Assembly (NCBI GenBank): GCA_050298055.1
Contig: JBNKTL010000029.1
Coordinates: forward strand, 1-64,000
Source: Spirochaetota bacterium
Lineage (GTDB): Bacteria > Spirochaetota > UBA4802 > UBA5550
Direction: 5' to 3'
Length of the DNA: 64,000 nt
This document shows positions 23,713 to 27,586 of this stretch, piece after piece (position 1 is the first letter of the stretch; each line of letters opens with the position of its first letter). The notes under the pieces were generated by a model that was not told the DNA's origin, did no database searches, and was given only the letters and a program-made list of their open reading frames with translations. The position numbers were made by a program, and so were the translations under genes.

Positions 23713-24198
23713 ATGGAAAATATTCTGGACATAAGTATGGTATCCGATTGGGATAAAATTGAAGGGATAAGAGAAAAGGGTGAGGATTTTTTCAGGTCGC
23801 ATAACATTTCTCATGATGATATGCAGGCCCTTATCATGGTCCTGAATGAGCTTATTGAAAATGCTGTCAAGTATGGGAGCGATGAAGGCGGGGAAAAAAA
23901 GATCCGGCTCCGGATAGAGTTTTCTGATAAAATGGTTACCATTGAGGTGATGAACCATGTTAACGGCACTTCGGAAGTTCACCTTGAAAGGCTGGATCAC
24001 ATGATACAGTGGATAAGGGGACACCAGAACTCCTTTGAGTCATATATTGAAAGAATCAGGGAAGTGTCCACAAAACCAATTGATGACGAGGAAAGCGGTC
24101 TTGGCCTGGTGAGGATCGCCTATGAAGGCAGGTCAATTATTGATTTTTTTGTGGATAAGAACAGACTCTTAACAGTATCAGCAATATACTATCTCTAA
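23713..24198 (+). CDS. SiaB/RsbW-like GHKL serine/threonine kinase
   Basis: 'NELIENAVKYG', 'IEVMN', 'SGLGLVRIAYE'; RBS AGGAG before ATG 23713. Confidence 0.8.
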   Translation: MENILDISMVSDWDKIEGIREKGEDFFRSHNISHDDMQALIMVLNELIENAVKYGSDEGGEKKIRLRIEFSDKMVTIEVMNHVNGTSEVHLERLDHMIQWIRGHQNSFESYIERIREVSTKPIDDEESGLGLVRIAYEGRSIIDFFVDKNRLLTVSAIYYL

Positions 24199-24221
24199 AC
24201 CAGAGGAGGCGGAAGTTAATT

Positions 24222-24587
24222 ATGAGTGAGACATTAAAAAGCGGAAAATTGACACTTGAAATTGAGAAAGGAAACAGTGAAATAAATATAAAGTGGATTG
24301 GAAAAAGTGATGACAGGAATCCCGGCAACTTTATCTACCCGATACTTCTCGAGAACCTGAAAGAAGGAAAAGAATCAAATATGAATCTCGTTCTTGACTT
24401 CCAGAACCTGGAATTCATGAACTCGTCCACCATTACTCCCATTGTGAAAATTCTTCAGGAAGCAAAAAACAGCAGCAACAGTGTAAAGATACTTTATTCA
24501 AATTCATTGAAATGGCAGGAGCTCAGTTTTTCAGCACTTGAAATTTTTGAAACAAATGATAAGAGGATTGAAATAACAGGAGTTTAA
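24222..24587 (+). CDS. SiaC/STAS-like phospho-switch protein
   Basis: 'WIGKSDDRNPGNFIYPIL', 'LDFQNLEFMNSS' (STAS/SiaC phosphoacceptor loop), 'VKILY'. Confidence 0.75.
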   Translation: MSETLKSGKLTLEIEKGNSEINIKWIGKSDDRNPGNFIYPILLENLKEGKESNMNLVLDFQNLEFMNSSTITPIVKILQEAKNSSNSVKILYSNSLKWQELSFSALEIFETNDKRIEITGV

Positions 24588-24590
24588 AAG

Positions 24591-25979
24591 ATGGTGGATA
24601 CGAAAAATATATATGAAGGGCAGTTAATAAAGGATGATGAAACTTATACTGTTACGCTTTTAAATTTTTCCCGGTTTGCCCTCCTGGTGAAATTTCAGTC
24701 CGGTGATCTTGTAGAAGATAATTACAGCTTTAACAGCCTGAAATTAAAGATTAATGATGAATCTTTTGAACTTGGCAGGTGTAAATTTATTTCAGATGTC
24801 AATATTAATGGGTACTCGGGAAAGATCGTTTTTACCGGGGATATCTATGACCTGTCGCTGCTTTTCTCAAAGCAGAAGGTTGTGAACCTTCTGTCGACCT
24901 TTAACAATCTGCCCCTTGTCATCGGGTACAAGGACAACATAACCGAAGATTTTAAAAACTTTACCGCGGCGGTAAATTACGACTGCAATGTCTATAAACA
25001 CTTTTTCGATGACATGGATAAAAGGTTCAGGGACGAGCCGGATGATATAAAAAATGAAATTGAAGAATCGATTATTAAATCTGAAGGCAGGAAGTTTTAC
25101 AGTTATCTGGATAAGGTCCTCCTGGAGCTTGACGGAATAGTTTCCGGTTTCAGCAGGGATGAACATGAAAAACATGGATACTATTTCAGAAGACAGCTCT
25201 GGAATATTCTCATGTGTTCGCAGTTCATGAAAAGAGCAAATGTCAAACCCAGGGGATACGCGGGAGACTCCGAGATGATGAACATGCTCTACAGGAGAGA
25301 ATACGAGGGCAATTCAACTTTTGAAAAGCTCCTGCACCGTCATCCCATAGAAAGGCCCGCGGCACAGGCTGTGAGGAATAGGAGAAAGATAATAGCGGAT
25401 AGCCTTAATCATATTCATGAGAAAACAGGTGATTCCCTGGATGGCAGAATGAAGGTGCTTTCCGTTGCATGCGGGCCGGCCTTTGAATTACATGACATCA
25501 TTAAGAATAAAAAAGATGCGGACAAGTACAGTTTTTTCCTTCTTGACCAGGACAGAGATGCCCTGAATGAAGCGGCAGGATCAATAAACGAAATACAAAA
25601 ACAGTTGAAAAGTAAGCTTGATGTTGATTTTATCATTGAATCCGTAAGGACCCTCCTGATGTCTCCGAAATTTGTTAAAACCACCGGGCAGTTCCATTTT
25701 ATCTATTCAATGGGACTTTTTGACTATCTTACGCCTCCTACAGCCAGGGCCGTCTTCAGCAAACTCTACGAGATGCTTATGCCCGGAGGCGAAATTGTCA
25801 TTGGGAATTATCATGTTGGCAATCAGGACAAATGGTATATGGAGTACTGGCTTGACTGGGTCCTCTATTACAGAACGGAAGCTGATATGCTGGGTCTCGT
25901 TCATGATAACAGGAGTGAGAAGGAGATCCTGTTTGACGGGACAAAAGCTCAGATGTTCCTGAAAGTGAAAAAATCATAG
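24591..25979 (+). CDS. PhcB-like class I SAM-dependent methyltransferase
   Basis: 462 aa; 'KPRGYAGDSEMMN', 'AQAVRNR', 'VLSVACGPAFE', 'LLDQD', 'YSMGLFDYL', 'MEYWLDWVLYYR'. Confidence 0.75.
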   Translation: MVDTKNIYEGQLIKDDETYTVTLLNFSRFALLVKFQSGDLVEDNYSFNSLKLKINDESFELGRCKFISDVNINGYSGKIVFTGDIYDLSLLFSKQKVVNLLSTFNNLPLVIGYKDNITEDFKNFTAAVNYDCNVYKHFFDDMDKRFRDEPDDIKNEIEESIIKSEGRKFYSYLDKVLLELDGIVSGFSRDEHEKHGYYFRRQLWNILMCSQFMKRANVKPRGYAGDSEMMNMLYRREYEGNSTFEKLLHRHPIERPAAQAVRNRRKIIADSLNHIHEKTGDSLDGRMKVLSVACGPAFELHDIIKNKKDADKYSFFLLDQDRDALNEAAGSINEIQKQLKSKLDVDFIIESVRTLLMSPKFVKTTGQFHFIYSMGLFDYLTPPTARAVFSKLYEMLMPGGEIVIGNYHVGNQDKWYMEYWLDWVLYYRTEADMLGLVHDNRSEKEILFDGTKAQMFLKVKKS

Positions 25980-25986
25980 AATTAAT

Positions 25987-26126
25987 GTTACTACTCAACT
26001 CCATGAATAAAATATCAACAATATGTCTCCGCCGCAGTGGACGGCCGGGATATCAGTTAAGTTTTTCATTAATTTGCACAATTTTCCTTTAAAGAGAGCT
26101 ATTCTTATATCAGTATGAGTAGTTAC
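25987..26126. mobile_element. Degenerate MITE copy
   Basis: GTTACTACTCAAC...TGAGTAGTTAC; decayed hairpin TGTCTCCGCCGC...CGGCCGGGATA. Confidence 0.75.
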
Positions 26127-26239
26127 AGTTAATTATCTCTCTTTTTCTCAATGGTTGAGTCAGTTCTTTCCGATAATGAAAGAGAGATGGTCCCCCCGGA
26201 GGAAAGGGATATTATTGATCAGTGAATCGGAGATATTGA

Positions 26240-27586
26240 ATGAGCCTGCTTGACATAAGCGAAGAAGTACCTGACATTGTCCCGGGACATGAAGAGTACC
26301 TGGTCAGGCTGATACATGATTGGTCCAAGGCCATGTATATGGTCGGGTTTATTCTTGTTCCGATGTTTTTAGTCCTGGATTATTTCACAATGCCCGAGGG
26401 ACTCCTTGTGTATTTTTTCTACTGGAGGGTTGGAGTTACCATAACCCTCGTCCTGCAGTATTTTGTGATAAGGATAACCCGGCCCACAAAATTTTCATAT
26501 TTTCACGGATATTTTTTCACCATTGTCGTTGGTCTTATGATAGCCAAGATGACGGTTGACCTGGGGGGGTTCGATTCCCGGTATTACGCGGGTCTTAACC
26601 TTGTTATAATCGGAGTTGCAATCTTTCTCCCCTGGCAGGCATACCACTCAGCGATAAATGGTTCAATATTAATTGTCATGTACCTTCTTTTAAATGTAAG
26701 TGCAGGCAAGGATTTCCAGGCAAATAATCTGATAAACAACCTCTTTTTTCTTTTTGCGACCCTGATAATAAGTGTCAGCGGGAACTATATCAGGAACAGG
26801 CTGATTATGCGGGAGTTCTCCCTGAGGATCCAGCTGGAAAAGGCCTGGGACTCAATCTGGAGTGAAATGGAGATCGCAAAAAGGATACAGACCGCACTTC
26901 TGCCCAGTGTACAGAACCTTGACAACTATGAAATTGCGGCATCAATGCACCCGGCTGAAGAGGTTGGAGGGGATTACTATGATATTTTAAAGGACTCCCG
27001 GGGAAAATACTGGATCAATATCGGTGATGTTTCCGGACATGGTGTGGAATCGGGACTTATTATGATGATGACACAGACCAGCGCATTTTCCATGATCAAT
27101 ATGAACCCGGACAGTAATCCTTCCGATGTGTTGAATTCCGTTAACCGTGTTATCAATGAAAACATTAAAAGGCTTGGATCCGAGAGATATATGACCATAT
27201 CCATTATCAGGCTTGATGAAAAGGAGATGATTGTATCGGGTAAACACCAGGACATTCTTGTCTACCGGGCAAAGGAGAAGAAAACCGAAGCTGTAAAAAC
27301 CGAGGGGACCTGGATTGGAATAATCGACAATATCAAGGAATATCTCACGGATAAAAGGATAAAAGTTGAAATTGGTGATATTGTTCTTTTATTTACAGAT
27401 GGAATTGTGGAGGCTTTTAATACCGCAAACGAAATGTTTTCCCAGACACGGCTGGAACTCCTGCTGACAAAATATGCCCACCTGACCGCAGAGGAGATAG
27501 TAAAAAAGATAATAAATGATGTACTTGACTACCAGGACCGGCAGGAGGATGATATAACCGTTGTGGTTCTTAAGAGAATTAACTAA
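26240..27586 (+). CDS. Membrane sensor PP2C/SpoIIE (SiaA/RsbU-like) phosphatase
   Basis: About 6 TM with 'YYAGLNLVI' and 'INNLFFL'; 'IQTALLP', 'VGGDYYD', 'GDVSGHG', 'FTDGI', 'DDITV'. Confidence 0.9.
   Translation: MSLLDISEEVPDIVPGHEEYLVRLIHDWSKAMYMVGFILVPMFLVLDYFTMPEGLLVYFFYWRVGVTITLVLQYFVIRITRPTKFSYFHGYFFTIVVGLMIAKMTVDLGGFDSRYYAGLNLVIIGVAIFLPWQAYHSAINGSILIVMYLLLNVSAGKDFQANNLINNLFFLFATLIISVSGNYIRNRLIMREFSLRIQLEKAWDSIWSEMEIAKRIQTALLPSVQNLDNYEIAASMHPAEEVGGDYYDILKDSRGKYWINIGDVSGHGVESGLIMMMTQTSAFSMINMNPDSNPSDVLNSVNRVINENIKRLGSERYMTISIIRLDEKEMIVSGKHQDILVYRAKEKKTEAVKTEGTWIGIIDNIKEYLTDKRIKVEIGDIVLLFTDGIVEAFNTANEMFSQTRLELLLTKYAHLTAEEIVKKIINDVLDYQDRQEDDITVVVLKRIN

Follow-up and report, generated by a model that had tools for sequence, protein, structure and literature searches.

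The window analyzed here is a stretch of 64,000 nucleotides (nt) from a Spirochaetota bacterium (GenBank assembly GCA_050298055.1, contig JBNKTL010000029.1, positions 1 to 64,000), and it harbors at 23713-27586, on the plus strand, a cassette of four genes that encode a Ser/Thr kinase, a STAS-type phosphoprotein, an S-adenosylmethionine (SAM) methyltransferase and a PP2C phosphatase with a membrane sensor. The four gene products have been assigned to their domain families, and the genes are conserved as one unit across phyla. Profile comparisons demonstrate that the methyltransferase is homologous in sequence to PhcB over its lid and catalytic domain, and that the membrane domain of the phosphatase is homologous, likewise at the level of sequence, to the sensor domain of PhcS. 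In Ralstonia, PhcB makes 3-hydroxymyristic acid methyl ester (3-OH MAME) or 3-hydroxypalmitic acid methyl ester (3-OH PAME), PhcS senses it, and both proteins co-vary with the signal type (PMC7694676). The reading favored here, on which our judgement is evenly divided, is that a Phc-like pair of synthase and sensor is read out by a partner switch, the methyltransferase being the likely local target of that switch.

The first-pass annotation of this DNA, made from its letters and ORF translations alone, had listed four co-oriented open reading frames (ORFs), and all of them are present. They encode, in order and on the plus strand, a SpoIIAB-like GHKL Ser/Thr kinase of 161 amino acids (aa) counted from its ATG (23713..24198), the STAS-type phosphoprotein of 121 aa (24222..24587), the methyltransferase of 462 aa (24591..25979) and, after a spacer of 260 nt read from the sequence (25980..26239), the phosphatase of 448 aa (26240..27586). 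The longest ORF of the kinase begins at a TTG codon at 23662, which probably over-extends it; the ATG at 23713 is taken as the start because it is preceded by an AGGAG ribosome-binding site and is aligned with residue 1 of the orthologues.

The conservation of this gene order was surveyed by scanning one genome per species, a search that yielded 164 encoded relatives of the methyltransferase, and the best 80 of these 164 were used as the locus set. The ORFs of each locus were compared with the window proteins under a strict criterion, namely that the kinase, STAS, methyltransferase and PP2C genes lie in this order on one strand within 3.5 kb. Complete and colinear cassettes were found in 66 of the 80 loci, so that the conserved order on which the first-pass proposal depended holds in several phyla. 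The carriers belong to Desulfobacterota, Spirochaetota, Leptospirales, Myxococcota, Fidelibacterota and Calditrichota, and also comprise a gammaproteobacterium and a Lewinellaceae bacterium, the cassette spanning at least six bacterial phyla. All four genes also occur in two further loci, one partly masked by N (L022) and one with the STAS gene shifted downstream (L057), and five loci are truncated by a contig edge (L009, L026, L031, L066 and L079).

Across 62 complete cassettes of other genomes, the orthologues of each of the four proteins show ~47-54% mean pairwise identity, well beyond what chance would produce. The STAS stop codon and the methyltransferase start are separated by 3 nt in the window, the median being 2 nt, with 54 of the 62 loci falling within -20 to +10 nt; a distance of 0-5 nt between these two genes is almost universal. 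The gap between the methyltransferase and phosphatase genes is 260 nt here versus a median of 26 nt in the orthologues. Crude gene calling and clustering within 6 kb of the 80 loci revealed no fifth conserved gene, as no further family occurred in more than five loci, antisense shadow ORFs excepted. The cassette is single-copy in the host genome, and its distribution is patchy, because a cassette-type methyltransferase is encoded by seven of 40 relatives (E below 1e-150) and by 22 of 301 evenly drawn genomes of the host phylum, in 10 of 125 genera (E up to 1e-100).

Some cassettes depart from this plan by duplication or fusion. Two full cassettes are present in some genomes, in two cases on the same contig (L032 and L041, ~14 kb apart; G227 C8; G138), and such double cassettes may constitute parallel signal channels. 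In three Spirochaetia loci (L052, L055 and L065), one or two additional STAS paralogues lie immediately upstream of the cassette kinase. In a metagenome-assembled genome of Desulfobacterota (L051:5671-7053), residues 1-135 of the kinase continue in-frame into residue 112 of the methyltransferase, and neither a STAS gene nor the barrel of the enzyme is found; this fused ORF may have arisen by natural fusion or by a deletion, or may be an artifact of assembly.

The methyltransferase is a class I SAM-dependent enzyme of the PhcB superfamily, and its AlphaFold model (mean predicted local distance difference test, pLDDT, 86.9) comprises three parts, all encoded on the plus strand: an N-terminal beta-barrel of seven strands (residues 7-81; 24609..24833), possibly a degenerate PilZ-like regulatory domain; a helical lid domain (residues 101-280; 24891..25430); and a Rossmann-fold SAM-binding catalytic domain (residues 287-460; 25449..25970). 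The KPRGYAGD motif that the first reading of the DNA had picked out is indeed present in the translation, within the lid. Pfam recognizes the catalytic part as Methyltransf_25 at residues 289-400 (E 1.1e-5), with 26.5 bits against a cut-off of 27, and for Methyltransf_25, _31 and _12 alike the match stays under the curated cut-off. Foldseek, when run on the model, returns only generic class I methyltransferases (top match 3ocj, E 5.4e-9) and gives no functional lead, and the methyltransferase profile finds no match at E up to 0.01 among the PDB sequences. With E up to 0.001 as the limit, a word-indexed search yields 1860 relatives, and many of the 120 matches listed bear the Joint Genome Institute (JGI) automatic name for PhcB; the superfamily amounts to 4187 representatives at E up to 0.001, with 468 at 1e-30 or better.

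The comparison with PhcB was made through a plasmid locus of Paraburkholderia graminis (L001), in which a methyltransferase gene is followed by genes for a histidine kinase and two response regulators. Its kinase is ~50% identical, in the sensor region, to proteins of Ralstonia pseudosolanacearum and R. syzygii named PhcS by NCBI, and its methyltransferase shows 64-92% identity to the 120 relatives listed for it, which include Cupriavidus, Massilia and Paraburkholderia. PhcB homologues are reported from Ralstonia, Cupriavidus and Paraburkholderia (PMC6989110). The locus was therefore used as a stand-in for the Phc system, on account of its gene order, its PhcS-like kinase, the relatives of its methyltransferase and the reported range of PhcB. 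By BLASTP, the window methyltransferase is 28% identical to the Paraburkholderia orthologue of PhcB over residues 179-456 (E 2e-35), and hhalign aligns it to the PhcB clade over residues 177-462 in 285 columns (E 1e-40), a further profile-profile comparison giving 3.9e-41. From residue 177 onwards, 46 of 100 columns that are at least 90% conserved in the cassette enzymes are identical and conserved in the PhcB clade, the shared residues including K219, P220, G222, Y223, G225, D226, R262, R264, N406, H408 and N411. In the model of a PhcB-clade protein (pLDDT 76.2), the helices from residue 101 onwards begin and end at almost the same positions; both models are rich in beta-strands at the N-terminus, where the pLDDT of the PhcB-clade model is under 60. 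The genomic context is different from that of PhcB, since the neighbors of the methyltransferase encode a Ser kinase, a STAS protein and a PP2C phosphatase in place of phcS, phcR and phcQ.

Other members of the superfamily have a more elaborate architecture. In 11 of 16 longer relatives scanned (~595-796 aa; P0301-P0398), 10 of them over the Pfam cut-off, a canonical PilZ domain stands ahead of the whole barrel-lid-methyltransferase body, and in one relative (P0324) the region corresponding to the beta-barrel of the window protein itself matches Pfam PilZ at 4.8e-5, whereas none of 27 cassette methyltransferases matches this family. The additional PilZ domain suggests that some enzymes of the superfamily are under the control of cyclic di-GMP. 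Two shorter plasmid homologues, from Rhizobium and Pseudanabaena, have signaling genes nearby, and the cassette is absent from their neighborhoods.

The phosphatase harbors a C-terminal PP2C/SpoIIE catalytic domain (residues 254-446; 26999..27577, plus strand), which matches Pfam SpoIIE (PF07228) at 5.6e-38 with 131 bits, over profile positions 2-191 of 192, and in whose translation the metal-binding motifs GDVSGHG, TDGIVEA and DDITVV can be read. Six hydrophobic helices can be read in the translation of the N-terminal 200 residues, which contain a PhcS-like, MASE8-like membrane sensor domain (residues 29-204; 26324..26851, plus strand). Residues 29-221 align by BLASTP to residues 24-216 of PhcS (E 1e-5), and the alignment of 66 cassette phosphatase N-termini to PhcS sensor regions is placed by hhalign at a probability of 96.7 and E 3.2e-10, over 172 colinear columns. 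When either alignment is reversed, the E value is 0.5; ten block shuffles score 3e-6 to 2.4e-4 because of a shared YYAGL motif. The relationship is also recovered reciprocally: a hidden Markov model (HMM) of the PhcS sensor, run over 12,204 ORFs of at least 70 aa from the host genome, has the cassette phosphatase as its best match (2.1e-9, 36.7 bits), and the cassette profile A5, run against the 494.5-kb Paraburkholderia plasmid, finds its sole match inside phcS (1e-9). The proposed kinship of the transmembrane part of the phosphatase to PhcS is thus borne out by the profile alignment and by reciprocal searches with controls. All 120 PhcS relatives listed have a precomputed Pfam assignment to MASE8, and this family occurs in 11% and 40% of the members of the two ESM Atlas clusters nearest to the sensor domain. 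This domain contains many conserved polar intramembrane residues and is as conserved as the catalytic domain, with mean identities to the window protein of 51% and 50%, respectively, in 65 orthologues. It is also found on four further proteins of the host genome, namely an adenylate/guanylate cyclase, a second PP2C phosphatase, a PAS-GGDEF-EAL protein and an Hpt-kinase.

The two small proteins resemble the kinase and the substrate of SpoIIAB/SpoIIAA-type switches. The kinase matches Pfam HATPase_c_2 (5e-8) and the NCBIfam slr1658 superfamily (NF047703; 2.1e-13, 50 bits versus a cut-off of 100), is closest among solved relatives to the anti-sigma F factor SpoIIAB (5e-4), and has N-box residues E46 and N50 and a G-box S128-G129-x-G131 that are invariant in all 24 aligned sequences. 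The STAS protein contains the sequence NLEFMNSST, in which S68 and S69 are unchanged throughout the 24 aligned sequences and Ser68, within the FMNSST motif, is the predicted phospho-acceptor. It matches the NCBIfam slr1659 superfamily (NF047705; 1.7e-8, 35 bits versus a cut-off of 100) and, below the cut-off, the NCBIfam anti-sigma antagonist model (3.4e-4); no Pfam match reaches 0.01. Among solved proteins, the anti-sigma antagonist TM1442 comes nearest to it (3.6e-5, residues 10-115), and SpoIIAA is also close. The features of a SpoIIAB/SpoIIAA-type module are therefore present as a GHKL kinase with N and G boxes, a STAS protein with the Ser of an FMxSS motif and a PP2C phosphatase, and phosphotransfer between kinase and STAS protein is predicted. 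No linked sigma factor that could be the target was found, no fifth gene being conserved within 6 kb in the 80 loci. Prediction of a complex between the STAS protein and the methyltransferase gave a score of 0.00 against a mark of 0.32, a result that says nothing either way.

The first-pass annotation had described the cassette as a Sia-type operon, which is not supported as a family assignment. The SiaA model NF038263 reaches 59.5 bits where its cut-off is 700, and does so through the PP2C domain only, Pfam SiaC reaches 14.1 bits against a cut-off of 24.5, no SiaB model matches, and the solved relatives of the kinase and the STAS protein include neither a SiaB nor a SiaC chain. Both small proteins fall outside the SiaB and SiaC families, and their nearest relatives are SpoIIAB, SpoIIAA/TM1442 and the slr1658 and slr1659 superfamilies.

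The current model, in which the chemistry and the signal flow of the cassette are all inferred, proposes that the PhcB-family methyltransferase would make a lipophilic methyl-ester signal by esterifying a fatty-acid-like carboxylate, as PhcB does, and that this product, or a related membrane lipid, would bind inside the six-helix bundle and alter the activity of the phosphatase. The phosphatase would dephosphorylate Ser68 of the STAS protein, which the SpoIIAB-like kinase would phosphorylate again, and the free STAS protein, or the freed kinase, would then act on a target. The methyltransferase is considered the most likely target because no fifth gene is conserved and because its gene and the STAS gene almost always lie within 0-5 nt of each other; regulation of this enzyme would establish feedback on signal synthesis. 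Wider outputs could be reached through unlinked receivers, that is, the four other sensor-domain proteins of the host genome. A bolder version of this model would make the cassette a novel, widespread class of quorum-sensing system, in which a PhcB-type fatty-acid methyl-ester autoinducer is perceived within the membrane by a PhcS-type phosphatase sensor and transmitted by Ser phosphorylation of the STAS protein, with no two-component relay; this version is tentative, and we would sooner expect it to fail than to hold.

Several results weigh against a Phc-like reading. In seven of the 80 loci, at least one part is missing from DNA that is itself present: three (L047, L049 and L054) retain only the methyltransferase and a divergent kinase-like gene, the Desulfobacterota locus L051 has the kinase-methyltransferase fusion without STAS, two (L055 and L061) are devoid of the phosphatase, and one (L068) is devoid of both kinase and phosphatase. 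As for the enzyme, its first 139 residues show no detectable similarity in sequence to PhcB (E 0.29, versus 0.17 for a reversed control). In a FastTree tree of 178 sequences, built on residues 185-460 with a sample skewed towards the 150 top-scoring hits of the window protein, the cassette clade (62 tips) and the PhcB clade (13 tips, support 1.0) are split by the midpoint root, so that the methyltransferase is a paralogue of PhcB and not an orthologue. Identity of substrate with PhcB cannot be assumed either, because the two proteins are only 28% identical. The original designation of the enzyme as PhcB-like is thus upheld as homology over residues 177-462, with a shared motif, and does not extend to orthology, given the separate clade and an N-terminus without detectable sequence similarity. 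As for the sensor, the lead of the cassette phosphatase in the host genome is modest, 36.7 versus 29.0 bits, with three paralogues at 29.0-25.5 bits. Pfam MASE8 (PF20968) finds no match at E up to 10 in the isolated domain, and a whole-genome search with it finds none at the cassette phosphatase. The presence of the domain on four other proteins also marks it as a general-purpose sensor module, and what it binds need not be the product of the enzyme.

The main rival is an alternative in which the switch controls the enzyme, with a logic like that of Sia and without any self-sensing. The STAS protein or the kinase would toggle the methyltransferase, the product (a volatile, a modified lipid or a metabolite) would be an output rather than a signal read by its maker, and the cue of the phosphatase would be external or reside in the membrane, unrelated to that product. 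This account would suit a self-contained cassette with no conserved fifth gene, the tight coupling of the STAS and methyltransferase genes, and a sensor type that is reused on other signaling proteins of the host and so need not be specific for the product; in SiaABCD, moreover, the enzyme is the output of the switch, and the N-terminal PilZ domain of 11 of the 16 long relatives means that enzymes of the superfamily are regulated outputs elsewhere. It leaves unexplained, however, why a synthase-like enzyme should be paired across phyla with a sensor of the PhcS family, when the only system studied has a synthase and a sensor that are cognate to each other (PMC7694676). We consider it rather unlikely.

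It could also be argued that the methyltransferase is a CheR-like protein carboxyl methyltransferase that modifies the STAS protein, the kinase or the phosphatase, and would thereby add an adaptation layer to the phospho-switch. Weak matches to the CheR SAM-binding model do occur in 25 of 27 cassette methyltransferases (best 9.2e-5; 0.061 for the window protein, under the cut-off), one plasmid homologue is annotated as CheR, and genes for CheX, a CheY-like protein and an Hpt-kinase lie 3 kb upstream in the window. These matches are nevertheless confined to the generic Rossmann part, whereas the similarity to PhcB is far stronger (E 1e-40) and covers the lid domain that CheR lacks, and the cassette encodes no chemoreceptor-like substrate; a CheR-like role is thus quite improbable. 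Fortuitous adjacency of four genes without joint function, which only the 260-nt spacer before the phosphatase gene could suggest, is refuted by the same gene order in 66 of the 80 loci of several phyla and by the correlated divergence of the four proteins, whose pairwise distances correlate with r 0.81-0.87 over the 62 complete loci, and its probability is negligible.

The cassette can be set beside several known systems. With phcBSRQ of Ralstonia, Cupriavidus and Paraburkholderia it shares the enzyme superfamily, with its length, lid motif and catalytic residues, the kind of six-helix membrane sensor, and the location of synthase and sensor genes in one operon-like unit. The sensor drives a HisKA/HATPase kinase in that system and a PP2C phosphatase in the cassette, the response regulators are replaced by a Ser kinase and a STAS protein, and the cassette enzyme forms a separate clade with another N-terminal domain sequence and a product that is only predicted; the hosts also differ, being Burkholderiales in one case and Spirochaetota, Desulfobacterota, Myxococcota and others in the other. 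SiaABCD of Pseudomonas aeruginosa comprises the PP2C phosphatase SiaA, the kinase SiaB, the DUF1987 protein SiaC and the diguanylate cyclase SiaD. Like the cassette, it is a four-gene unit of a membrane PP2C phosphatase, a Ser/Thr kinase, a small phosphoprotein and an enzyme that is plausibly the output, but the cassette enzyme is a methyltransferase rather than a cyclase and the gene order differs. The resemblance to Sia is one of logic, by analogy, and implies no family assignment. SpoIIAB/SpoIIAA/SpoIIE and RsbW/RsbV/RsbU provide the closest solved relatives, an FM(D/N)SS-type Ser motif and a SpoIIE/PP2C phosphatase; the cassette differs from them in having no linked sigma factor, an embedded enzyme gene and a PhcS-like, lipid-type sensor on the phosphatase. 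The slr1658 and slr1659 superfamilies (NF047703 and NF047705) are the best NCBIfam matches of the kinase and the STAS protein, with scores well under the cut-offs, and Slr1658 of Synechocystis is known only through a phenotype during recovery from iron starvation (PMC7555055).

No description of the cassette was found in searches of the open-access literature. To our knowledge, Phc signaling has been found only in Ralstonia and closely related Burkholderiales, in which virulence is under its control. By wiring the Phc types of synthase and sensor to a phosphatase switch, a cassette of this kind would extend fatty-acid-ester signaling to many anaerobic and environmental phyla, and it would be an undescribed way of sensing a self-made lipid signal. 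Partner switches would, if this is true, gain a defined small-molecule input, and the cassette offers a compact and testable system of four genes, with the phosphorylation state of one Ser as the read-out. If the quorum-sensing version also holds, this would be the first such autoinducer circuit in Spirochaetota, Desulfobacterota, Myxococcota and Fidelibacterota, and the signal would also reach cyclic-nucleotide and chemotaxis-like outputs, by way of the paralogous sensor domains.

Three of the paralogous sensors of the host genome, those of the cyclase, the second PP2C phosphatase and the PAS-GGDEF-EAL protein, are encoded at C31:22123-23391, C28:31513-32967 and C56:9181-11514, respectively. 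The fourth lies in the window, 3 kb upstream of the cassette, in the stretch 18814-21719 (minus strand); it is a protein of 679 aa in which a sensor of this type, matched by the cassette profile at 3.3e-13, is fused to Hpt and HATPase domains, and its gene is followed by those for CheX and a CheY-like receiver. This Hpt-kinase is possibly a second receiver that feeds a chemotaxis-like output.

Downstream of the cassette, a convergent gene for a PilZ-domain protein (27583..28011, minus strand; Pfam PilZ 2.4e-12) overlaps the stop codon of the phosphatase gene by 4 nt. The first-pass annotation had taken it as a hint of a cyclic di-GMP output; the gene is real, yet a PilZ relative occurs within 6 kb in only four of the 80 loci and is adjacent in only one (L069), which makes the gene a neighbor of local occurrence rather than a conserved part of the cassette. 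Just upstream of the cassette, 21989-23314 on the minus strand encodes a multihaem cytochrome c of 441 aa (Cytochrome_C554 1.3e-9, several CXXCH motifs). Between the cytochrome gene and the cassette, at 23440-23540, lie two GC-rich palindromes that look like a repeated extragenic element, the one at 23511-23530 being terminator-like. A promoter and terminator scan of 23200-28300 was uninformative, with 13 promoter-like sites versus 13.8 expected. No Rfam family matched the window, and hence no ribosomal RNA was detected in it. The G+C content is 51-57% at 4001-8000 and 52001-58000, versus ~40% around the cassette, and an ORF of 665 aa at 31949-33946 on the minus strand appears, by eye, to join a methyltransferase to an ATP-grasp (D-Ala-D-Ala ligase-like) domain. 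The spirochaete-like nature of the host, which had been suspected from the window alone, is supported by three FlaA genes above the Pfam cut-off in its genome, versus none in 14 control genomes.

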